A stretch of 64,000 bases of DNA from Candidatus Margulisiibacteriota bacterium (GTDB lineage: Bacteria > Margulisbacteria > Marinamargulisbacteria > JBFWNS01), in the NCBI GenBank assembly GCA_050250935.1, contig JBFWNS010000001.1, positions 288,001 to 352,000 on the forward strand. Reading direction: 5' to 3'. The notes beneath the pieces are model-generated. The model did not search any database. It was given only the letters and a program-made list of their open reading frames with translations, and was not told the DNA's origin. The stretch's first letter is position 1; every line of letters begins with the position of its first letter. The position numbers were made by a program, and so were the translations under genes. Below, one piece after another: positions 25,602 through 37,032 of this stretch.

Positions 25602-26885
25602 ATGGGTATCGGCATTACACCAGGTGGATTGGGCGCAAATAGTCAGGGATTAAATGTCCCCCGGGTTGCCCCTGTCGGAAAACCCCCAGAAACCGAAAAT
25701 GCCCAACGCTCGGCCATTAATGTCAGTTCAACCTCGTCTGCCCCGGCACCAGCCAGCACCCAAGCGGTTACGCAGACAGCACCGGCCACCGAAACCAAAC
25801 CCGCACAACCCACCAAACCCCAGTCCGAAGTTGTTCCCATGTCTCGGTCCGATTTGGTGGCCCATGCCATGCAACTTCAGGTTCAGACCAGTGCCACCAA
25901 TTTGCAAATTCTCGAAACCATGGTGCAACACAATTTGGCCCCTTCGAAAGAGAATTTCGACCAAGTGGCCCGGGTTTTAAAAGGGAATACCGGCATTACG
26001 GATATCGAAGCTGCGGTTGTCACCGTTGAAAAGGGATTGGGCAGCAACAACCGAAGTGCGGAATCGGTCTCTTCTTTTCTGACCAATATGGCCAAAATGA
26101 CCGAACAATTTCAAACCACACAAACCGCCCTTTCCCAACTCAAAAGCATCATTCAAAACAACCAACAACTGATCGGTTCTGGTTTGGTGGCCAGTATCTC
26201 GGCCTTGGCTGGCAGCATGGATGATGAAATTCAAAAATTGCTTAAAAAATCCTCGGATTCCGAAGATCAATTAAATTTACAAATTTTCGATCGTGGCAAA
26301 TGGGTTTCCGATCTGGAAGCCATGCGTGGGTTTATGGCCGGTCTTGAAAAAAATGTGGATAAAGCCGAATCCAACGCCGTGCCAGCCTCCCTCAAAGAAA
26401 GTCTTCAGTCGGTTCAAAAACAACTGACAGGTCTGACCAACACCTTGGTCTCGCAACTGGTTCTTTCCAAAGAAAGTCCCTTTGTAACCTTCGGTAAAGA
26501 CACCTATATGTACTGGCAAATTCCCAATCCTTTTGTGGCCAAACCCAGCAACATCGACATCCTGATCAAGCGTGACCCCAAAAAACGCAAGGGCGTGGAC
26601 CCCCAAAAAACCAAGCTGGCCATTAAGCTAGAAACCCCCGATTTGGGCGAAGTGGCCATCGTTGTCGAGCTGTCTGACCAGCGGGTGTGGTATATTTTTA
26701 ATACCGACAACGAAGAGACGCGCCAAGAAATCACCCGAATGAATGTGGATTTGAAAGAAAGAATGAAGTCGTTGAATTTGGATTTGGTTGGCTTTAAAAC
26801 CGCCTTCAAAAAATTGGATATCAAAAAAATGCTTATGCCCGTTGTGAATTTGGATTCGATTGTCCGCATCCAAGCCGAGGTCTAG
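25602..26885 (+). CDS. FliK-like hook/needle length-control protein
   Basis: Pro/Thr/Ala-rich N-terminus; C-terminal FliK-type domain LAIKLETPDLGEVAIVVEL...LKERMKSLNL; precedes a FlhB-C homolog. Confidence 0.65.
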   Translation: MGIGITPGGLGANSQGLNVPRVAPVGKPPETENAQRSAINVSSTSSAPAPASTQAVTQTAPATETKPAQPTKPQSEVVPMSRSDLVAHAMQLQVQTSATNLQILETMVQHNLAPSKENFDQVARVLKGNTGITDIEAAVVTVEKGLGSNNRSAESVSSFLTNMAKMTEQFQTTQTALSQLKSIIQNNQQLIGSGLVASISALAGSMDDEIQKLLKKSSDSEDQLNLQIFDRGKWVSDLEAMRGFMAGLEKNVDKAESNAVPASLKESLQSVQKQLTGLTNTLVSQLVLSKESPFVTFGKDTYMYWQIPNPFVAKPSNIDILIKRDPKKRKGVDPQKTKLAIKLETPDLGEVAIVVELSDQRVWYIFNTDNEETRQEITRMNVDLKERMKSLNLDLVGFKTAFKKLDIKKMLMPVVNLDSIVRIQAEV

Positions 26886-26887
26886 CC

Positions 26888-27241
26888 ATGGCCAAGATTA
26901 AACCCAAGAAAATTCGGCGTTTTTTAAGTGATCTGGAACTTCCAGAACGCAGTCAACTTAAGGCCATTGCCATCAAATACGATGTCCACAAGGATCATGC
27001 GCCTAAAATTACGGCCACAGGTCGCGGGGCCATTGCCGAAGAAATCTTAAAAGTTGCCGAAGAAAATGGGATTCCCTTCTACGAAGATCCCAGTCTGGCA
27101 GCCCTTTTGGCCAAACTTGAACTGGACGTCAACATTCCCGCCGAACTTTATACCCTGGTGGCCGAGGTCTTGGCCTTTGTGTATCAGTTGGATAAATTGG
27201 CCAAAAAACGCAACGCCATTCGCAAAAAATTCGTGCGATGA
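26888..27241 (+). CDS. Stand-alone FlhB C-terminal-like switch protein (EscU/YscU/YlqH family)
   Basis: AIAIKYD..APKITATGRGAIAEEILKVAEENGIP..IPAELYTLVAEVLAFVY. Confidence 0.92.
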   Translation: MAKIKPKKIRRFLSDLELPERSQLKAIAIKYDVHKDHAPKITATGRGAIAEEILKVAEENGIPFYEDPSLAALLAKLELDVNIPAELYTLVAEVLAFVYQLDKLAKKRNAIRKKFVR

Positions 27242-28044
27242 GGATCGTCTTGATCCTGGCCATGATAGGCTTTTTGCTGACCTGGGGGTCCATTTCCTTT
27301 GCCCAGGAAATCAATCAACCGCCAAACCCCACTTTTGCCATCGACCCTGCCCTTAAATACACCATGCAAGGCATGCGTGGCATTCGGACAGCCTATGCCA
27401 TGAACGTTCTGTATACCACCAACACCGACGTTCCGGGTTATATCGAAACCTATACTTACGTTAGCCGCATCAAAAACAACCTTCAAATCGAGCCCTACTA
27501 CAAATGGGGTAGGGTCAGCCGTCTTCAAGAAACGAATCGGCCTTTGGACATCTATATCGATGCCGATGCCCGTGGTTTTCTTCAAATTCAATTGCCTTTT
27601 GCCATTGGTTATACCCGGGATGGGCGCATGACGCTTGGTGAAAACAACCAATTGGTCACCCTTGCGGGTCATTACCCCATTTTGGGGGAAGAGGGCTTCA
27701 TTTTCTTGCCGCCCGGCGATATTGCCATTTCAAAATCTGGGGTTATTTTTGTGAATGGAAACCGAATTGCCAAGCTCAAAATCGCGGTAATGCCCAAATC
27801 CAGCCTGGGACGGATGATCGGTATTAATGGGGTGGTTTTTATTGCCAACGGCCCCGACGATTTGGCCTTGCTTAAAGACGAAACCCTCTATGGCATTCGC
27901 CAAGGCTTTTACGAAGATTCTACCGTTATGAAAGAAGCGGCTGGGGAGAGCATGTTTAATCAACAATCCTGGATGGCCATGCTCAAAGCCGTTAAAACCC
28001 TTAACAAAACCATGCGAAGCAGTGCTCATTTGGGCAGTGAATAA
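27238..28044 (+). CDS. FlgF/FlgG-family rod protein paralog 1, with N-terminal signal peptide
   Basis: MRIVLILAMIGFLLTWGSISFA|QE; NTDVPGY, ETNRPLD, YTRDG, G.PILG, QGFYEDSTV. Confidence 0.8.
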   Translation: MRIVLILAMIGFLLTWGSISFAQEINQPPNPTFAIDPALKYTMQGMRGIRTAYAMNVLYTTNTDVPGYIETYTYVSRIKNNLQIEPYYKWGRVSRLQETNRPLDIYIDADARGFLQIQLPFAIGYTRDGRMTLGENNQLVTLAGHYPILGEEGFIFLPPGDIAISKSGVIFVNGNRIAKLKIAVMPKSSLGRMIGINGVVFIANGPDDLALLKDETLYGIRQGFYEDSTVMKEAAGESMFNQQSWMAMLKAVKTLNKTMRSSAHLGSE

Positions 28045-28049
28045 GGACC

Positions 28050-28078
28050 TTGCCAAAAAATTGACTTCCCTCTATCAT
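28050..28078 (+). promoter_or_regulatory. Putative sigma70 promoter inside the flagellar-like cluster
   Basis: TTGCCA-17 bp-TATCAT in the gap between the two FlgF-like genes. Confidence 0.5.
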
Positions 28079-28112
28079 TTTTTCACTTTGGACTTTATTC
28101 CTCTTGTCTAGG

Positions 28113-28913
28113 ATGTTTATGGGTATACGATCTTGGCTTGGGGGATTCTTTTTACTGCTGCTGGCCACCAGCGTTTATCCCCAATACGACAACAAAAATT
28201 TGCCTGTCATGGACTTTGCGTTGCGGCAGAACCTGCAAAACATGAGGGCCCAACAAACCCAGTACACCACCTTCGTGTTTTATACCATTAATATGGACAC
28301 CCCAGGCTATATCGAGCATGCGTTCTACAACGCCAGGGAAAATGGCATTATCCGTGGAAAAGCCTTCCCACGGTGGCGGGAAAGTGGGGTTAAAGAAACC
28401 AATCGACAACTCGACTTTCTGATCGACGCCGAAAGCCGGGGCTTTTTTACCATTCTTCTGCCCTATGGCATTTTGGGCTACACCCGAGATGGCCGTTTCA
28501 AATTGGGTGAAAATGGGCATTTGATTACCTTTGCAGGGGGATACCCTGTTTTGGGAGAAGAAGGAGAAATCTATTTGCCTATTGGCGACATTGCTGTTTC
28601 AAAATCTGGGGTCCTTTCGGTAAACAGCGACCGGGTTGCCAAGCTTCGTATCGCCGTCATGCCCTCTAAAACCTTGGACCGTATGGTCGAAATCAATGGT
28701 TCTGTGTTTTATTTGTCTGGCAAAGAACCTGTAGAATTGCTTGAAGGAGAGCAATATTATGCAGTTCGACAAGGGTTCCTTGAAGAATCCAACGTGTTAA
28801 AAGCGCTGAATGGTGATATTTTAATCGTTAAGCAGTCCTACGAGGCTTCGACCCGTGCTGTGAAAAGTTTGACCAAGACCATGACCTCGTCGTTCCAAAT
28901 TGGAACCCCCTAG
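28113..28913 (+). CDS. FlgF/FlgG-family rod protein paralog 2, with N-terminal signal peptide
   Basis: MFMGIRSWLGGFFLLLLATSVYP|QY; NMDTPGY, ETNRQLD, YTRDGRF, QGFLEESNV. Confidence 0.82.
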   Translation: MFMGIRSWLGGFFLLLLATSVYPQYDNKNLPVMDFALRQNLQNMRAQQTQYTTFVFYTINMDTPGYIEHAFYNARENGIIRGKAFPRWRESGVKETNRQLDFLIDAESRGFFTILLPYGILGYTRDGRFKLGENGHLITFAGGYPVLGEEGEIYLPIGDIAVSKSGVLSVNSDRVAKLRIAVMPSKTLDRMVEINGSVFYLSGKEPVELLEGEQYYAVRQGFLEESNVLKALNGDILIVKQSYEASTRAVKSLTKTMTSSFQIGTP

Positions 28914-28940
28914 ACCCCCTTATATCAAAGGAGCTCAACC

Positions 28941-29744
28941 ATGATCCATCAGTTATTTATCGCCAAGTCCGGGATGTTCGCGTTTCAACGAAAAATGCAG
29001 GTCATTACCGACAACATTGCCAATGCACAAACACCAGGGTTTAAAGGCAGCCGAACCGAAATGGAGAGTTTGTTCCCCTATATCATGGAACAAACCATTA
29101 CCGAGTTCGAAGACTCGTCGATTCCTGTGGGCGAAAAACGTAAAAAATACATGCAATACGGCCAAGGGGTTCGGGTTAACGATGTGTCCCGGGATCTTCG
29201 CCAAGGTGTTATTGAAATTACCAACCAACCCCTGGACATGGCCATCGAAGGGGTGGGCTTTTTCCAAGTTCGGATGCCCGACGGGACTTTGGCTTACACC
29301 CGTGCTGGCAACTTTAAATCAGACAATCAGGGAACCATTGTGGATCCAAACGGTCACCCACTGGAGCCCTCAGTTCGACTGCCCAACAACATGACGGACA
29401 TTGCCATCACCGACGATGGAAAAATCATGGTCTATGTGAACAACGAAGCCGTCCCTCGCGAGGCCGGACAACTGCTCTTGGCGAAATTCCAAAACCCAGC
29501 CGGCATGAAGTCTGTCGGACAAAACCTCTATGTCGAATCCCCTGCCTCCGGGGAACCCGTTTTTGAAAACCCTGGCCGGAACGACATGGGCCGCATCCGA
29601 GAACGGGCCCTGGAATTCTCCAATGTGGATATTATCGATCAGCTGACCTCGATGATTTTGACCCAGCGTTCTTTCGAGTTGATTATTAAATCGACCAGCG
29701 CGGGTGATGCGATGCTTAAAGCTGCTAGTGATATCGGCAAATAA
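28941..29744 (+). CDS. flgG: Flagellar distal rod protein FlgG (no signal peptide)
   Basis: AKSGMFAFQRKMQVITDNIANAQTPGFK, TNQPLDMAIEG.GFF, YTRAGNF, LEFSNV; RBS AAGGAG. Confidence 0.93.
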   Translation: MIHQLFIAKSGMFAFQRKMQVITDNIANAQTPGFKGSRTEMESLFPYIMEQTITEFEDSSIPVGEKRKKYMQYGQGVRVNDVSRDLRQGVIEITNQPLDMAIEGVGFFQVRMPDGTLAYTRAGNFKSDNQGTIVDPNGHPLEPSVRLPNNMTDIAITDDGKIMVYVNNEAVPREAGQLLLAKFQNPAGMKSVGQNLYVESPASGEPVFENPGRNDMGRIRERALEFSNVDIIDQLTSMILTQRSFELIIKSTSAGDAMLKAASDIGK

Positions 29745-30450
29745 AGCCTGGTTATTCTTTCTGCTATGCTGGGCCAGTTGCACACCGCTTTTTGGGGTTG
29801 CTGTGCCCGATTTTCGCAGCGCGTTGGATCAGCAGTTGTTGGGACATGTTTTGGCGTCGGATTCTCGGCTTACCAGCGAGTCTGTTCGCATTCGGTATAC
29901 GCTTAGCCCCCTTCAAACCCAGCGCATTCAATCGGCGAAAACGGTAACCCTGACCCTCCCCCCAGAAGCCTCTTTGATTGGCAAAACCACCCAAACCCTT
30001 AGCCTAACTCTTGAAACCGAAACCGTGCCGCTTCCCTTGTCGATCGAAATCGACGCTTATGCCCATTTTCTGAAAGCAGCCAGAACCATTCCAGCCAGAA
30101 CCCTCATCGCCACGTCCGATGTTTATGTCGACTTTGAATCGGTTTACGGAAAACCCAAACAGACCTTCGAAAACCCAGCTCAAATTGTGGGTAAACAAAC
30201 CATTACAGTAATCCCAAAATATGCTATAGTGGCGTCGTGGTTTTTACAGGAAAAACCCCTTTTCCTTTCAGGAAAAACCATAACCGTCATCGTCAAAGGA
30301 AAACAAATTTCCATTTCACTACCTGGGATTGCCCTCAACGATGGTTTCAAAAACAAGTCCGTCAAAATCAGAACAAAAGCATACCCTGACAAACTCTTGG
30401 AAGGTGAAGTATTGGATGAAGATCATGTTCAAGTCCTTATTCGCGATTAG
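29728..30450 (+). CDS. flgA: P-ring formation chaperone FlgA
   Basis: Signal peptide, SAF-like AARTIPARTLI..SDV, G.AL.DG; sits between flgG and flgH. Start uncertain. Confidence 0.78.
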   Translation: MISANKAWLFFLLCWASCTPLFGVAVPDFRSALDQQLLGHVLASDSRLTSESVRIRYTLSPLQTQRIQSAKTVTLTLPPEASLIGKTTQTLSLTLETETVPLPLSIEIDAYAHFLKAARTIPARTLIATSDVYVDFESVYGKPKQTFENPAQIVGKQTITVIPKYAIVASWFLQEKPLFLSGKTITVIVKGKQISISLPGIALNDGFKNKSVKIRTKAYPDKLLEGEVLDEDHVQVLIRD

Positions 30451-31030
30451 TTTGGTCTTTTTTTCAGCCTCCTTCTGCCAGGCTGATTCTCTTTGGACCA
30501 CCGGCTCTACGTCGATGTTTGTGACACCCAAAAACAGCACCAAGGTTGGGGACATCATCACAATTCGCATTTCGGAAAGCACCACGGCTCTGCAAGAAGC
30601 CACCACCAAAACTCAGAAACAGTCCGAGCTGGATGCCCAATTGCTCTCTAACTGGGATCAGGTCGCCAACATTTTGGGCAGTGAATCGATTCGAAAGGGC
30701 TATGAGCTCGACATCAAAGGCAACGACTCCTACAACGGTACCGGCCAAACCTCGAGACGAAGCCGGGTGTCCGCCACCATTACAGCCATTGTGACCGAGG
30801 TTTTGGATACTGGGATTTTTTATATCGTTGGTGAACATAAGGTTAAGGTGAATGACGAAGTCGAAACCATCCGTATTTCTGGTTTTGTTCGACCCGAAGA
30901 TGTTAAGCCAGACAACAGCATTGCGTCTTCTCAAATTGCAAAAGCAGAAGTCTCCGTTATTGGGGCAGGGGTTGTTGGGTCGAAACAAACACCCGGTATT
31001 TTAACCAAAATGTTCAACTGGTTCTTTTAA
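30416..31030 (+). CDS. flgH: L-ring protein FlgH
   Basis: DSLW, VGDIITIRISE, ITAIVTEVL, RISGFVRPEDV..DNSI.S.QIA.A, GILTKMFNWFF. Confidence 0.92.
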   Translation: MKIMFKSLFAISLVFFSASFCQADSLWTTGSTSMFVTPKNSTKVGDIITIRISESTTALQEATTKTQKQSELDAQLLSNWDQVANILGSESIRKGYELDIKGNDSYNGTGQTSRRSRVSATITAIVTEVLDTGIFYIVGEHKVKVNDEVETIRISGFVRPEDVKPDNSIASSQIAKAEVSVIGAGVVGSKQTPGILTKMFNWFF

Positions 31031-31031
31031 C

Positions 31032-32129
31032 ATGAAAAAAACAATCGTTCTTTTTTTAATTATTGCGTTGTTAGCCCCTTCTTTTTCGCTTTTTGCCCAG
31101 GACGGAGGCCCAACGGTTCGCCTGAAAGACATCAGTCGAATTCTGGAGGCCAGAGACAATCAATTGATGGGGTTTGGATTGGTTATTGGTCTTCGGAATT
31201 CTGGAGACTCCAAAAACACGGTCTTTACCGATGCAGCTTTAACCAACATGCTCAAAAAAATTGGCTTGCCCACGGGGCCCAAAGAATTTTCTTCGCGCAA
31301 CGTCGCTGCGGTTATGGTCACTGCGACCTTGCCCCCTTTCATCAAAAAAGGACAAAAATTGTCGGTTACGGTTTCGTCTTTGGGGGATAGCACCAGCTTG
31401 GTGGGTGGCACCCTTATTATTACCCCACTCCAAGGGGTCAATGGCAAAATTTATGCGGTTGCCCAAGGAACGGTTTTGGTGGGCGGCTTGGATGGCAGCT
31501 CTCAACAAGGGCGTTTATATCGCAACGAAACCACGGTGGGACGTATCCCAGAAGGGGCCATTGTTGAAGATGTGGTGCCCGTTACCTTTACTGACCAACA
31601 CAACATTACCATTGTAATGCACAACTCGAACTTTATTACGGTTTCCCGGGCCACAAAAGCCATTCAGGATAATGGGTTTCCCGGCGCCAAGGCCATCGAC
31701 GCCAACATGATCAAAGTCCCCTTGTCCGATCTTAATTCTTCCGATTTGGTCAGTACCATTGCCAAACTTGAAAATATTGCAGTTGTTCCCGATTCTTCCT
31801 CCAAAATTGTGGTTAATTCCCGAACTGGAACCGTGGTTATTGGCGATATGGTTCGGCTTTTCCCAGTGGCTGTGACCCATGGCAACATCTCCATTCGCAT
31901 CAGCGACAGCGACAATGGGGGGTTGGCTGCCCTTCAAGGTGGGGGCGCTCAAGAACCCATTCGGGTTGATGAGCCTCAACCTAAAATTATTTTCTTGAAC
32001 CCCAATTCAACCTTGTCTAGCTTGGTGAATGCCCTTAACGAAATTGGGGCTTCACCCAAAGACCTTATCTCGATTTTGCAAGCACTCAAAGAATCTGGTT
32101 CCCTTATCGGAGACCTTGAGGTCCTCTGA
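31032..32129 (+). CDS. flgI: P-ring protein FlgI
   Basis: RLKDI, NQLMGFGLVIGL.NSGD, NVAAVMVTATLPPF, RTGTVV, DLISILQALKESG. Confidence 0.96.
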   Translation: MKKTIVLFLIIALLAPSFSLFAQDGGPTVRLKDISRILEARDNQLMGFGLVIGLRNSGDSKNTVFTDAALTNMLKKIGLPTGPKEFSSRNVAAVMVTATLPPFIKKGQKLSVTVSSLGDSTSLVGGTLIITPLQGVNGKIYAVAQGTVLVGGLDGSSQQGRLYRNETTVGRIPEGAIVEDVVPVTFTDQHNITIVMHNSNFITVSRATKAIQDNGFPGAKAIDANMIKVPLSDLNSSDLVSTIAKLENIAVVPDSSSKIVVNSRTGTVVIGDMVRLFPVAVTHGNISIRISDSDNGGLAALQGGGAQEPIRVDEPQPKIIFLNPNSTLSSLVNALNEIGASPKDLISILQALKESGSLIGDLEVL

Positions 32130-32527
32130 TGCAGCAGTGGATTTTCTGGGCCTTTCTTTTGTCTTTACTTCCCTCGGTTCTTATCGCACAAGATTTCTCT
32201 AGCATGATGCCCATGGATCCCATGGCGATTCAACACCAGAAGTTGAGCCGAAAAGAAAAAAAAGACATCCTGGTTACCTTCGAAGCCCAGATTATCAAAG
32301 AAATGTTTTTAAAACAGTGTATGATCCAAAATATCAGCTTCTTGGACGAAGAAGAAAAGGCCGAAGATGCCGCATTGTTGCAGCAATTCGATATGCAAAA
32401 CGACTACTTCACCGATGCCATGGCCTTAAAACTGGCCAAGCAGGATATTTTTAAGCTCAAAGCCTACTTTAAACGCCGAGGAATCAACCCTGAACAAGCA
32501 CAAAAACAATCAACAGCAAGAAATTAA
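32129..32527 (+). CDS. FlgJ-like rod-binding protein (no muramidase domain) with signal peptide
   Basis: Follows flgI. MQQWIFWAFLLSLLPSVLIA|QD; FEAQIIKEM and DAMALKLA resemble the FlgJ N-terminal rod-binding motifs. Confidence 0.55.
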   Translation: MQQWIFWAFLLSLLPSVLIAQDFSSMMPMDPMAIQHQKLSRKEKKDILVTFEAQIIKEMFLKQCMIQNISFLDEEEKAEDAALLQQFDMQNDYFTDAMALKLAKQDIFKLKAYFKRRGINPEQAQKQSTARN

Positions 32528-32588
32528 TATTTCGAAGCTGCAACACCAGGAAATTCATCAAACCCGAACCGTTATTACAGACGAGTTT

Positions 32589-33266
32589 GTGGCAGAGCAC
32601 ATGTCCATAGTCGAGGCCATTGCCTCCAACATTGCTGGCAGTGGGCGAATTCCCCCTTGCATTGGATTTGACGACTTGGTCAGCTGGGGCATCGAAGGGC
32701 TGATCAAGGCCCACCGCAACTACAAGTCGGACAAAGGGTCTCAGTTCAAAACCTATGCGTTTTACCGCATTCGGGGCGAGATTTTGGACCGAATTCGAAG
32801 CGAATGGCAATACCGAAACCCCCACGAGTACACCGATTACCGCAAAAAACTTCAGGATCGTATTGCCGAAATTGCCGAAGAAGCCTTGGAAGATCCTGCT
32901 CTGGCCGAAAATTCGGCAGCAGCCTACGAGGAAGCGGTTCAAAGCATTGTGGCCAACTCGGCCATTTCTTGCCTGATTTCTTCCGATTCCATCGATATCG
33001 AATCCCATATGGCCGGCACCCGAAACCCTGAAACCGAGTTTTTCGAGGAAGAAGAAGCCTCTTACCGGTTGTTATGGAGCGAAATTAATACCCTAGATGC
33101 CGAAGAAAAAGAATTGGTGGAATTGTTTTATGTTAAAGGGCTCAAACAAAAAGAAATTGCAGCCAAGCTTAATTTTTCCAACAGCAAGGTGTGCCGTTTG
33201 CACATGAAGATTTTGGACAAACTGCGTCGCCGCATGTCCAAAAAAATGACGGAGCCCCAAGCATGA
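32589..33266 (+). CDS. FliA/WhiG (sigma-28)-like sigma factor
   Basis: DDLVSWGIEGLIKA..FKTYAFYRIRGEILD.IR (region 2); GLKQKEIAAKLNFSNSKVCRLH (region 4). Frame is open upstream, so the start may be earlier. Confidence 0.88.
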   Translation: MAEHMSIVEAIASNIAGSGRIPPCIGFDDLVSWGIEGLIKAHRNYKSDKGSQFKTYAFYRIRGEILDRIRSEWQYRNPHEYTDYRKKLQDRIAEIAEEALEDPALAENSAAAYEEAVQSIVANSAISCLISSDSIDIESHMAGTRNPETEFFEEEEASYRLLWSEINTLDAEEKELVELFYVKGLKQKEIAAKLNFSNSKVCRLHMKILDKLRRRMSKKMTEPQA

Positions 33267-33640
33267 AAGTCGTTTTGATGGGCTTATTAATGGCCTTGTT
33301 ATGTCTCGAACCCCTTCAAGCCAAAGCCATCGACCGTGTTTTGTTTGACGATGTTCACGACCATTTGGCAACGGCCATTAATGGCGCAGCCGAAAAACAA
33401 AGCATGTTTTCGTACAACATCGCCAACGCTTCGACCCCTGGGTTTCGACCCGTTTTGAGCCCCGAAGACAGTCTCGAATTTCGAAACCTTGTTCCCGCCA
33501 ATCACCAAGATTCGGACATTATGATTGAATATTTTATGGCCAAATTAACCGAAAACAGGTCTCATCAAAGTGCCTACATTAAACTGTTTACAACAAAAAT
33601 GGGTATTTTGCGCCAGGTTGCGACCTTGGGTAAACGCTAA
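33263..33640 (+). CDS. flgB: Proximal rod protein FlgB with N-terminal signal peptide
   Basis: ATGA overlap with the sigma stop; MKVVLMGLLMALLCLEPLQA|KA; NIANASTPGF; precedes flgC. Confidence 0.85.
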   Translation: MKVVLMGLLMALLCLEPLQAKAIDRVLFDDVHDHLATAINGAAEKQSMFSYNIANASTPGFRPVLSPEDSLEFRNLVPANHQDSDIMIEYFMAKLTENRSHQSAYIKLFTTKMGILRQVATLGKR

Positions 33641-34083
33641 TGAAAAAGGCCGTCGTTCTTTTTTTACTGCTGACACTTGCTTCTCCACTTCTAGCCCAGG
33701 GCTTGGATGATGCGTTTAAAATCAGCATGTCTGGCATTGCGGTTCAAAAATTTCGCCTGCGCCTGATTGCGGAAAATATCGCCAACGTCGCGACGTTGAA
33801 AACCGAAACCGGCCTGCCCTATCAGAAACAGTATGCTGTTTTGCAGCAGCATAAATTTGGGGTTCGGGTTTTGCGGGTTGAAAAAAGCAACGAACCCTTC
33901 CCCATGTACCCCGACGGCGCGGTGATTCAAGCCGACGACGGAGGTTTTGTCCATTGGCCCAACGTTAACCTTCCCGACGAGTACGTGGATTTGGCCTTTA
34001 CAGAAGCCATGTTCGAAGCCAACGTTACGGCTTATAAATCGGCCAAGGCTATGTATCAACAAACCTTGGAAATCTTGAAATAA
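33640..34083 (+). CDS. flgC: Proximal rod protein FlgC with N-terminal signal peptide
   Basis: MKKAVVLFLLLTLASPLLA|QG then LDDAFKISMSG..Q..RL.LIAENIAN, PY, ADDGGFVHWPNVN, FEANV..K.MYQQTLEILK. Confidence 0.9.
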   Translation: MKKAVVLFLLLTLASPLLAQGLDDAFKISMSGIAVQKFRLRLIAENIANVATLKTETGLPYQKQYAVLQQHKFGVRVLRVEKSNEPFPMYPDGAVIQADDGGFVHWPNVNLPDEYVDLAFTEAMFEANVTAYKSAKAMYQQTLEILK

Positions 34084-34096
34084 AGGAGGCTCTTTT

Positions 34097-34738
34097 ATGA
34101 TTGGAAACGTTTCAACAGCTGCAGCATCCGCTTCTTCTGGCCCAGCCATACCAAAACCCTCGCTGGCCGATCTGGATGGCCCTTCTTTTCAAGAAGTTTT
34201 GGACGAAAAAACAGCCAAACAACCCGACCATTCCAACACACAAAATCCGATTCAACACCTGACAAAAGCCGTAGCCGGACCTTCTGCAATTGCCCAATCC
34301 AATTTGGTTGCCCAGGCATTATCCGACGAAATTACCAAGCCTCAACGCAAGTTTCAGGCCGCCAAAAAAGACATCAACGACAACACCCTTTTGGCCCAAG
34401 CCCCAGACAACAACTACGAAAACTGGCAGGCTCAACTTTTTGACAACGCCCCAGCTGCCGTTACCCCTAAAAACGTCGTTAATGAAGCCCAAAAAAGTAA
34501 TAAATTGGATGTGACGCCCTTCCAATTGTTCATGGACAAAGCGGTTGATGCCCTCGAAAATATCAGCCAGATGGAATTTAAGGTAAACGACTTGATCGAC
34601 GGCTATATTCAGGGTAAGGTTTCTATTGATGAAGTGACCATCGCCGCTTCAAAATTAAGCCTCGCTGTTTCCTTTATTACAACTGCCGTCACCACGGCCA
34701 CCCAAACCTTAAAAGAACTTCAACAAATGCAAATTTAA
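34097..34738 (+). CDS. fliE: FliE-like protein with long N-terminal extension
   Basis: C-terminus FQLFMDKAVDAL..GKVSIDEVTIAASKLSLA..KELQQMQI is typical of FliE; lies between flgC and fliF; RBS AAAGGAGG. Confidence 0.8.
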   Translation: MIGNVSTAAASASSGPAIPKPSLADLDGPSFQEVLDEKTAKQPDHSNTQNPIQHLTKAVAGPSAIAQSNLVAQALSDEITKPQRKFQAAKKDINDNTLLAQAPDNNYENWQAQLFDNAPAAVTPKNVVNEAQKSNKLDVTPFQLFMDKAVDALENISQMEFKVNDLIDGYIQGKVSIDEVTIAASKLSLAVSFITTAVTTATQTLKELQQMQI

Positions 34739-34762
34739 CCCTTTCACAGATAAGGACACCCT

Positions 34763-36385
34763 ATGGCCGAAATGGACTTTGACAACGAAAACGATCTTGA
34801 TATTGGCGAACCCCCAAAACCTGCTTCTGGGTTCTCGTTTCGTCGTATTTTTACAACCTTGGCCGTTGTCGCAGGTGTGGTTGCTTTGGGGGCCACGGTT
34901 TACAATTATGTGATTAAAGACGACAGCATTAGCGCCATCAAAGCCAAGGCCCCAGCCACTGCTGAAGCCCCTGAAAAAAAGGAAAAATCTGGTGGTTTTT
35001 TCAGCTCTTCAGATAAAAAGAAAAAAGTAAAATATACCGTTTTATACACACAGTTGTCTCCCGACATCACCACCAGTGCTTTGCGGGAACTCAGCTTTTC
35101 AGACATTCCTTTCGAAACCAAACAAAACGGGAAAAACTTCGATTTGTTAATCGATGAAGACCGCATTGACGAAGCCAAAAACCTGCTGGCCCTCAAGGGA
35201 ATTCCGGGTGGTGAAATTAAAGGCTATCAATTGTTGGACGATTCCCAAACCCTTGGGGTAACGGAATTCGACAAACGGGTTCGGTTTGTAAGGGCCCTTT
35301 CTGGGGAATTGGAAAAAGCCATTACCAAGCTCGATATGGTTGAAGATGCCAAGGTTCAAATTGTATTGCCCGAACAGCGTTTGTTTGCCGTTACCCAACC
35401 CCCCGTCACGGCCTCGGTTTTGATTCGCAAAACCCAGGATGGGGTTCTAACCGACGATGTGGTGTTTAGCATCATTCAAATGGTGGCCAACTCTGTGGAA
35501 AACCTTCAACAAGAAAACATTACGGTTGTGGACACCGAAGGACACGTGTTGTCCGAGGGTATCTTCGAACGCATGGCAGCCAGACGAGCTGGACGCATTG
35601 TACCCAAGCGCCCAACAGCAGCTGTCGAAGAAGCCGTTTCCCCCACCGAAAATGTGGCTCCATCGGCCAATACAGGCCCAACTTTTGCCTCGATTTCCGA
35701 TCTGAATAAATGGTATGCACTTAAAGAACAGTACGAAAAAGACCTGGCCAAGCGGGCCATGCGCCAGTTGGTGGGCATTTTACCGATGGGCAGCTACAAA
35801 GTGGTGATTGCTGCTGATATTTCGCCTGTTATTAAAGACGGCCAAATCGAAGTCCGCCGTCTGACCACCAGCATTGTCGTAGACAGTAGCCGAAACGACA
35901 TTTATTTGGATATTTTAACCAAAAAACAAATCTTCAATACCATTGCAGGTGCCATTGGCTATGTGAAGGGCCGGGACACGATTCAGCTGAACAAGGCCGA
36001 CTTTAGCCTTCTTTCGGCTGCGGAACGCCAACAGATTATGGACGTTTTCATCGACAAAAATTGGAAATATTATTTAAAACTCTATGGCAAATACTGGCCG
36101 TTTGTGGCCGTTCCTGTTGGGGTGTTTGTGGTATACAGCCTTCTGGCAAGCTTGGTGCGCCGGATTCGAGAACGCTTTAAACGCAATGCCGAGGAACTCG
36201 AGGATGATGACGATAACGAAGACCCCGAAGAAGGGGAACCTGACTTTGCCGAACTTCATCAAGAAGTGAATCCTGCCAGGTACACCGAACAAATTAAAAC
36301 CACAGCTGAAAGCAACCCCCAAGTCATCGCCCAATTAATGGAAGAATGGCTTGAAAACGACCAAGAAGAAGAGGTGCCTGCCTAA
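34763..36385 (+). CDS. fliF: MS-ring protein FliF, with shortened RBM3/beta-collar
   Basis: TM1, YTVLYTQL, GYQLLD..LGVTEF..RALSGELEK.I, AKVQIVLPE..F, TASV, second TM helix, NPQVIAQLMEEWL. Confidence 0.9.
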   Translation: MAEMDFDNENDLDIGEPPKPASGFSFRRIFTTLAVVAGVVALGATVYNYVIKDDSISAIKAKAPATAEAPEKKEKSGGFFSSSDKKKKVKYTVLYTQLSPDITTSALRELSFSDIPFETKQNGKNFDLLIDEDRIDEAKNLLALKGIPGGEIKGYQLLDDSQTLGVTEFDKRVRFVRALSGELEKAITKLDMVEDAKVQIVLPEQRLFAVTQPPVTASVLIRKTQDGVLTDDVVFSIIQMVANSVENLQQENITVVDTEGHVLSEGIFERMAARRAGRIVPKRPTAAVEEAVSPTENVAPSANTGPTFASISDLNKWYALKEQYEKDLAKRAMRQLVGILPMGSYKVVIAADISPVIKDGQIEVRRLTTSIVVDSSRNDIYLDILTKKQIFNTIAGAIGYVKGRDTIQLNKADFSLLSAAERQQIMDVFIDKNWKYYLKLYGKYWPFVAVPVGVFVVYSLLASLVRRIRERFKRNAEELEDDDDNEDPEEGEPDFAELHQEVNPARYTEQIKTTAESNPQVIAQLMEEWLENDQEEEVPA

Positions 36386-37032
36386 TGTTGACTGGAAAAC
36401 AAAAAGCCCAAATTCTGTTGTCCCTTTTGGGTTCAAAAGCCCAAGACGTTCTAAGCTTATTGTCCCCCGAAAAAGCCCAACTGTTGACCACCATTATTGA
36501 GGACGCCCCAGAACCCAGTGCCAAAGAATTAAGCGCTTTGTCCGACGAAATTACCCAACGGGTTGGTGGAAACAAAAAGCCCATGCTTACGGGCGACTTG
36601 TCCAGCTCGTCATCTTCTCTTTTTTCTGGAGAAAGTTCGTTTGGGGCCTTTGATGCCGCACCCGAAGCCGAAGAACCAGAATCCCCTGTGGAATCCGGTC
36701 CCAAATTGCGCCCACTACCCGAAGTGGCTGCCCTGCTTTCCAAAGAAAAACCCCAGTTGATTGCCTTTATTTTGGGCAAAGTTGAAGAGCCCATCAAAGA
36801 GGAATTGCTCTCGTATTTACCCGACTATGTGTTGGCCGAAGTGCAAGCTCGCTCTGTGGATTCTTTCCCGCTTTCAGATGCGGTGTTTAAACAATTGTAC
36901 GACGCTATTTTTTATGCCCCAGAGATCCCCGAAGGCGAAGAGGCGCCAGCCGCAGAATCCAGTTCTACGGACTCGCCTTTTGCGTCCTCCTCGTCTTCGT
37001 CTATGTTTGATAGCGCACCGCTATTTAGCTAG
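36385..37032 (+). CDS. Truncated FliG-like protein (N and M domains only)
   Basis: LTGKQKAQILLSLLG (FliG-N) and LLSKEKPQLIAFIL (EHPQ-type M motif); only 215 aa, ending in a Ser-rich tail. Confidence 0.78.
   Translation: MLTGKQKAQILLSLLGSKAQDVLSLLSPEKAQLLTTIIEDAPEPSAKELSALSDEITQRVGGNKKPMLTGDLSSSSSSLFSGESSFGAFDAAPEAEEPESPVESGPKLRPLPEVAALLSKEKPQLIAFILGKVEEPIKEELLSYLPDYVLAEVQARSVDSFPLSDAVFKQLYDAIFYAPEIPEGEEAPAAESSSTDSPFASSSSSSMFDSAPLFS

Follow-up and report, generated by a model that had tools for sequence, protein, structure and literature searches.

Ring and rod genes in an operon of Candidatus Margulisiibacteriota: a probable second type III machine other than the flagellum

Results

The flagellar-type operon

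The stretch of DNA analysed here, hereafter the window, comprises 64,000 nucleotides of the forward strand of contig JBFWNS010000001.1 (positions 288,001-352,000) in assembly GCA_050250935.1 of a Candidatus Margulisiibacteriota bacterium, a genome of 1.95 Mb in 17 contigs that is 95.85% complete and 0.16% contaminated. It contains an operon for flagellar rings and rod that an earlier note on this DNA had described as a co-oriented, intact cluster; all 15 open frames were recovered, intact and on the + strand, between window positions 25602 and 37032, with trxB directly after the last. Genomes, families, loci and contigs are given by code (G, f, L and C, respectively), G000 being the window genome and C1:288001-352000 the window. 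The 15 genes are as follows.

25602..26885, +: FliK-like ruler, 427 amino acids (aa); PF02120 (FliK C-domain) at residues 330-398; precedes flhB-C in most loci
26888..27241, +: FlhB C-terminal-only protein (FlhX-like), 117 aa; PF01312, with TIGR00789 below cut-off
27238..28044, +: FlgF-like rod protein 1, signal-peptide-like N-terminus; PF22692, TIGR02490
28104..28913, +: FlgF-like rod protein 2, signal-peptide-like N-terminus, lineage-specific duplicate; family match
28941..29744, +: FlgG distal rod protein, canonical, without signal peptide; passes TIGR02488
29704..30450, +: FlgA P-ring chaperone, start codon uncertain; PF13144, TIGR03170
30416..31030, +: FlgH L-ring protein, from its likely start (longest frame from 30329); PF02107
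31032..32129, +: FlgI P-ring protein; PF02119, E-value (E) 1e-107
32129..32527, +: 132-aa protein in the flgJ position, signal-like N-terminus; homologues in the same place in other loci
32589..33266, +: FliA-like sigma factor; TIGR02479 below cut-off
33263..33640, +: FlgB proximal rod protein, signal-like N-terminus; PF00460
33640..34083, +: FlgC proximal rod protein, 20-residue signal-like extension; TIGR01395 match begins at residue 25
34097..34738, +: FliE, long N-terminal extension; PF02049 weak, residues 129-213
34763..36385, +: FliF MS-ring protein without beta-collar; PF01514; aligned to flagellar FliF
36385..37032, +: FliG, N and M domains only, no torque domain; PF14842, PF14841

Family matches bear out the gene identities proposed in the earlier note for all but the frame called flgJ-like: the 132-aa protein after flgI had no flagellar family match in profile searches, and its putative rod-cap role is read from position only. 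In both FlgF-like proteins the score is confined to the D1 domain. The likely start of flgB overlaps the fliA stop, the longest flgB frame running from 33191. FliE does have the long N-terminus attributed to it, but as a lineage-specific trait; across loci the protein measures 99-241 aa, and neither the long form nor the second flgF is general. FlgH is short (about 200 aa) and has no clear lipoprotein box, in the window (30416-31030) and in the flagellum of G069 (L418:12549-13148) alike.

The remainder of the system in the genome

The window operon is half of a larger system. A gate cluster at C5:117578-128544 carries fliM, a parA-type ATPase gene, fliN, fliO, fliP, an extra gene, fliQ, fliR, flhB, flhA and a second sigma factor gene, with two genes lacking family assignment, in the fliK and flgD positions, ahead of fliM; fliH, fliI and fliJ lie at C1:411627-414366. 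FlgE models match the hook protein (287 aa, C5:143274-144137) in two pieces, its middle part being missing. The type III export apparatus is complete (FlhA/SctV, FlhB/SctU, FliPQR/SctRST, ATPase, FliH, FliJ and FliN/SctQ), and the body of a flagellum is present as rod, L/P rings, MS ring and hook protein, together with half a C-ring made up of FliM, FliN and the FliG N and M domains. Because the ATPase gene directly follows short fliG in G085, G145, G129 and G069, the operon was evidently split in the window lineage. The earlier note was right that the cluster has no hook, stator, fliH/fliI or gate genes, but counterparts of all of them lie elsewhere in the genome.

Family searches of the whole genome, in each of which positive controls matched, found no Flagellin_N, FlgK, FliD, FlgD or chemoreceptor, the FlgK search yielding a weak cross-match to FlgG only. 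The G069 proteins that we read by position and sequence as FlgK, FlgL, FlgN, FlgM, FliW, CsrA, FlhF and FliL had no match in the window genome either, and no secretin was found among the scanned genes of the three operons. The genome-wide hidden Markov model search that the earlier note had proposed thus gave a divided answer: flagellin, FlgK, FlgL and FliD were not found, whereas the gate, FliH/FliI, a short hook, MotAB and a FliG C-domain within a fusion protein were.

Other genes accompany the gate cluster. The ParA-type ATPase between fliM and fliN (C5:120336-121085; L006:5336-6085) occurs in 6/6 gate loci of the same class and is absent in other classes. A 328-aa protein with a signal-like start and no family match lies between fliP and fliQ in many loci (here C5:122438-123424; L006:7438-8424), and a row of large orphan coiled-coil proteins, candidate substrates, lies just upstream of the cluster (C5:109480-116430; L005:9480-16430).

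Distribution across the phylum

Our survey covered 146 genomes of the phylum, 72 of them of high quality. FlgI was detected in 136 (70 high-quality) and FlhA in 135 (70 high-quality). Flagellin_N matched in 15 (11 high-quality), leaving 131/146 without, FliG_C in 64 (29 high-quality) and the MotB plug in 59 (27 high-quality). Of the 15 flagellin-positive genomes, 13 (G057-G069) carry FlgI twice, match FlhA at least twice and encode a canonical FliG of 333-339 aa, which is confined to those 13; two export ATPases were found in 4/4 tested of this group, against one in 8/8 unflagellated genomes. G007 (C64, L013) and G126 (C4:62270) each have a lone flagellin-type match, which may represent contamination or a remnant; nothing else in these two genomes points to a second, flagellar set of genes.

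The order flgG-flgA-flgH-flgI-x-fliA-flgB-flgC-fliE is kept in all 20 loci compared, which were picked for long contigs and spread over families. The single-contig genomes G129 and G085 contain the system and gave no flagellin, FliD, FlgD, MotB or chemoreceptor match. The short hook was detected in 84/146 genomes (one query, E 1e-25), and in 10 of 20 gate loci its gene sits directly before fliM, in the flgE position. The system is a conserved second machine across the phylum. Because 13 relatives have it as a second copy next to a normal flagellum, it is not a product of decay, in agreement with the earlier note. Its proposal of a repurposed, flagellum-derived machine likewise agrees with a conserved second copy and with the lack of detectable flagellin, FlgK, FlgL and FliD. 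Among the features that it wished to see conserved in relatives, gene order, collar-less FliF and half FliG proved general, but the signal-like extensions are specific to clades and the second flgF and long FliE to a lineage. In the true flagellar operon of G069 (L415:8878-9448), gene calling gave nothing of fliE size between flgC and fliF.

FliF without a collar and half a FliG

A collar-less FliF and a half-length FliG are general features of the system. In alignments to two flagellar FliF proteins of the phylum, which confirm the earlier description of FliF, the interval between two strands of the third ring domain spans 0 to about 30 residues in 10/10 copies of the system and about 75-100 residues in the 2 flagellar copies. 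The window FliF matches ring-building motifs 1 and 2 strongly, and its C-domain match covers model positions 91-147 of 147 only. FliG of the system measures 153-271 aa wherever detected; that of the window matches the N and M domains and no C domain, as had been noted.

Signal-peptide-like extensions on rod proteins

Hydrophobic N-terminal extensions are found in the window operon on both FlgF proteins, the 132-aa protein, FlgB and FlgC, and on neither FlgG nor FliE. We surveyed 41 loci, the window and 40 others. FlgC carries a hydrophobic extension of 16-61 residues in 30/41 and starts 1-2 residues before its core in 11/41; FlgF is extended in 22 of the 33 loci where it was detected, and FlgB, with a patchy distribution, in 20/40. 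No extension was accepted for FlgG or FliE in the surveyed loci (three scores were borderline), and FlgH and FlgI were positive as controls. Most extensions finish in small residues, at the point where homologues without a signal start. By our heuristic, these extensions agree with the signal peptides that the earlier note assigned to five rod or rod-cap proteins.

All 11 loci without a FlgC extension belong to families f38-f50, on one side of the first split of the system in the FlhA tree, so that a single gain or a single loss accounts for both FlgC and FlgF. The suggestion of partial assembly through the general secretory (Sec) pathway therefore stands in reduced form: extensions are predicted, but on part of the rod and in some clades. 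Sec export would be limited to part of the rod, because a complete type III gate, an ATPase and a short hook are retained. Since the collar is lost in both groups, its loss may have let Sec-exported subunits dock sideways. If correct, signal peptides on rod proteins would be an exception to the rule by which the axial proteins of flagella leave through the type III gate alone; the titles and opening lines of abstracts listed by a literature search contain no description of FlgB/FlgC-type rod proteins with a signal peptide or Sec dependence.

Phylogenetic position

In an FlhA tree of 79 of 137 collected rows, subsampled by hand, the system forms one clade (support 100) and the flagellar FlhA of the phylum another (100). 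With support 99, a branch sets 47 flagellar rows apart from the system plus 8 SctV rows, among which Archangium SctV is deepest. The same split was obtained in smaller FlhA sets (97 and 90), in an ATPase tree of 58 rows (90) and with FlhA and ATPase joined (29 rows, 1111 columns; 98), where support was still 98 without the fastest 30% of columns. Conserved columns shared by the system and Sct against flagella number 8, compared with 0 for the system and the flagellum of the phylum and 3 for Sct and that flagellum. In the FlhA and ATPase trees, the system appears to have every sampled flagellum on one side and every sampled injectisome on the other. An origin by duplication from the flagellum of the phylum was rejected on FlhA and ATPase together (approximately unbiased test, p-AU 0.006) and was not rejected on FlhA alone (0.122).

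A hairpin operon and a candidate needle

A further operon at C5:133123-139374 encodes proteins of 87, 108, 862, 280, 89 and 595 aa. It runs into the short hook gene in 12/13 loci of the same class, with the 87-aa protein detected in 10 of the 13. A profile of the 87-aa protein matched in 29/146 genomes, all of that class, and the 280-aa marker was found in 123/146. Among 20 loci around this marker in other classes, the 595-aa gene is next in 18, and one or two genes of 74-140 aa lie upstream in most. In many f38-f50 genomes (L401-L413) the marker is broken into two frames that lie side by side, the second apparently including the 89-aa neighbour.

The 87-aa protein is modelled as a helical hairpin (predicted local distance difference test score, pLDDT, 68). 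By language-model features in the Atlas, 22 of its 30 matches are PF09392, the needle subunit (best 0.93, 205/256 features), and needle or inner-rod entries of one injectisome take ranks 1, 2, 4, 6 and 9 in Foldseek, at E 0.9 or worse. Judged from these matches, the 87-aa hairpin is a likely needle subunit. No Atlas match of 0.9 or more was obtained for the 108-aa protein. The hairpin gene is present in three tandem copies in G025, and one 91-aa hairpin has a weak Flagellin_C match (E 0.045).

Discussion

We consider it probable that the window operon supplies rings and rod to a second type III machine, one other than the flagellum, that has been conserved in the phylum. Rotation of this machine is unlikely, and export likely proceeds by way of a short hook and a predicted needle-like filament. 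The best reading is a static type III export machine in which rod and L/P rings stand in place of a secretin. During its assembly, the gate would seed the collar-less FliF ring. Where signal peptides are predicted, Sec would carry FlgC, FlgF and often FlgB into the periplasm, from which they would dock on FliE and the gate from the side, as the missing collar would permit; FlgG, FliE and the short hook would still pass through the gate. The L and P rings would provide the passage through the outer membrane, the role of the secretin in the injectisome, and after the FliK/FlhB switch the 87-aa and 108-aa hairpins would polymerise into a thin needle. Such a machine would likely serve to contact a host or partner cell and to deliver proteins into it.

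Several observations weigh against this interpretation. The Foldseek E-values just given are one, and in 4-10 of 100 trials with shuffled proteins the Atlas score also rose to 0.9; the structure arm of the Atlas did not return needles for the 87-aa protein. PF09392 matched none of 25 aligned hairpins or 30 further small proteins, nothing in 55 genomes of the class exceeded its cut-off, and no PDB sequence matched either. The 862-, 280- and 595-aa proteins have no family match and, in this genome, no clear membrane helix, and no translocon, tip or effector candidate was recognised here. Contig C5 also encodes a short secretin of 350 aa, in an operon of its own 15 kb away from the gate cluster (C5:102198-103250; L005:2198-3250), and motA and motB lie at C2:21674-23258 (L011), the MotB having a plug motif. 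The signal peptides were judged by a heuristic score and alignment rather than by SignalP. FlhA scores 760 bits with the flagellar model and 642 with hrcV (cut-off 692), the ATPase 652 bits with the flagellar model and 597 with SctN (cut-off 605), so that by profile score both still count as flagellar and not as Sct. Finally, the trees contain 4-9 injectisome rows each, none of them chlamydial, and borrow their root from PMC3459982; the stems of the system and of Sct are both long, and when either is removed, the other joins near the same poorly resolved deep node.

Some of these points would suit a hook-only conduit or envelope anchor, in which the machine ends at the short hook and secretes to the medium or tethers the envelope, the hairpins being chaperones or substrates. 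The hairpins lack a family or significant structural match to SctF, the 108-aa protein lacks a strong Atlas match, and filament-less flagellar basal bodies are known from Buchnera. We nevertheless regard this alternative as unlikely, given that the top feature and fold matches converge on needles, that nearly all loci of the class have hairpin operon and hook gene linked, that the marker of this operon is found across most of the phylum, and that three tandem copies in G025 suit a polymer subunit.

Less probable still is an odd rotary organelle, in which lineages with MotAB and a FliG fusion turn the ring and the hairpins form a minimal flagellin-like filament. The window genome does have MotA, MotB and a FliG C-domain, the sole match to the latter lying in a 492-aa protein (C6:12967-14445; L022) with a signal-like start, a part resembling a FliF ring domain (a weak match, best E 8e-4 against 12 FliF), a membrane helix and the FliG M and C domains. 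The fusion gene adjoins motA or is one gene off in 13/17 fusion loci, those of the window genome being on different contigs; L/P rings serve as bearings in flagella; the 91-aa hairpin resembles Flagellin_C weakly; and a FliG paralogue with charges retained occurs in some class members. However, the charged torque-helix residues (which we take to be R281, D288/D289 and R297 in E. coli FliG numbering, facing R90 of MotA) are replaced in 16/17 fusions, judged against flagellar FliG of the same phylum, and the facing MotA arginine, a histidine here, is replaced in most fusion-linked MotA and mostly kept in the MotA of flagellated genomes. No chemoreceptor was found in this genome, and the FliG of the operon itself has no torque domain. 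Because 81 of the 136 FlgI-positive genomes, 43 of them high-quality and including the single-contig G129 and G085, have no MotB match, the core machine appears to need no stator. The term "non-rotating" in the earlier note is thus favoured by most of this evidence, with MotA, MotB and a FliG C-domain in the genome speaking against it.

The secreted, membrane-anchored fusion of FliG M and C domains forms a module with motA-motB (loci L419-L431) that may be an independent ring-and-stator device. Unflagellated class members also possess additional FliG paralogues, about 350 aa long, in which some torque charges persist and which often lie next to other motAB pairs (L057-L059, L061, L062, L066, L068-L070 and L072); none was detected in the window genome.

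A decaying flagellum in a reduced genome, for which the small genome, divergent rod proteins and truncated FliG might be cited, is scarcely credible and already refuted by conservation across the phylum, with the same order and truncations in 20/20 loci across classes, retention in 70/72 high-quality genomes, coexistence with an intact flagellum in 13, and a clade of its own at support 99-100.

If the static export machine is accepted, its position in the trees bears on how injectisomes arose from the flagellum, and the system allows the sequence of events to be tested in present-day genomes and by tomography. Tentatively, and with slightly more doubt than confidence, we suggest a third class of type III machine, the living sister of all injectisomes, in which filament and motor had been lost and a needle gained, with rod and L/P rings not yet exchanged for a secretin; Sec export of the proximal rod would have come later, in part of the phylum. 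Among living systems, this machine may be the nearest relative of the injection needles that pathogens use, although long-branch attraction could also account for its grouping with injectisomes. According to PMC3459982, injectisomes arose once from the flagellum, through an ancestor with SctF and without secretin, and the earliest-branching system, that of Myxococcales, is without FlgBCDEK, FliEG, FlgH, MotAB and SctF. That branch had thus already lost rod, FliE, FliG and FlgH, which the system described here retains.

The near-universal presence of the system suggests that contact with a host or partner is a basic trait of this uncultured phylum. The main text of its main genome paper (PMC6349859) never uses "flagell", "secretion", "motil" or "pili", although its supplements may list the genes. 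Passages of PMC6784892 describe thin tubes that join "R. eludens", a member of the phylum, to the host vacuole, and mention neither flagella nor a type III secretion system. The literature listings and opening lines of abstracts that were searched, subscription papers lying outside this scope, contain no description of the system.

Compared with known systems, the machine shares with the flagellum FliF, FliE, the FlgB/C/F/G rod, the FlgA/H/I rings, FliM/N/O/P/Q/R, FlhA/B, FliH/I/J, FliK, a FliA-like sigma factor and gene order. It differs in having no flagellin, FlgK, FlgL, FliD, FlgM/N, FliW or recognisable FlgD, a hook cut to about 285 aa, a FliG without torque domain, a FliF without collar and signal-like rod extensions, and in forming a clade separate from the flagellum of the same cells. 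Buchnera aphidicola has kept hook-basal body and export genes and lost the filament, and an export role has been proposed for what remains of its only flagellum; the two thus have in common a flagellar basal body and export genes without a filament, but the system is a phylum-wide paralogue beside a full flagellum, with new parts of its own. With the injectisome it shares the grouping of gate and ATPase with SctV and SctN, a collar-less inner ring as in SctJ, a small hairpin with a predicted resemblance to SctF, and the lack of a filament and of an obligatory stator, whereas no secretin, SctD, tip or translocon was identified in its operons. Unlike the secretin-less injectisome of Myxococcales, which lacks all of these according to PMC3459982, it keeps rod, FliE, the FliG N and M domains, L/P rings and hook. 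The needle-like operon, the tree position and the signal-peptide pattern are contributed here, and they belong to a real, phylum-wide type III machine that is neither a flagellum nor an injectisome by composition, having the body of the first and likely parts of the second.

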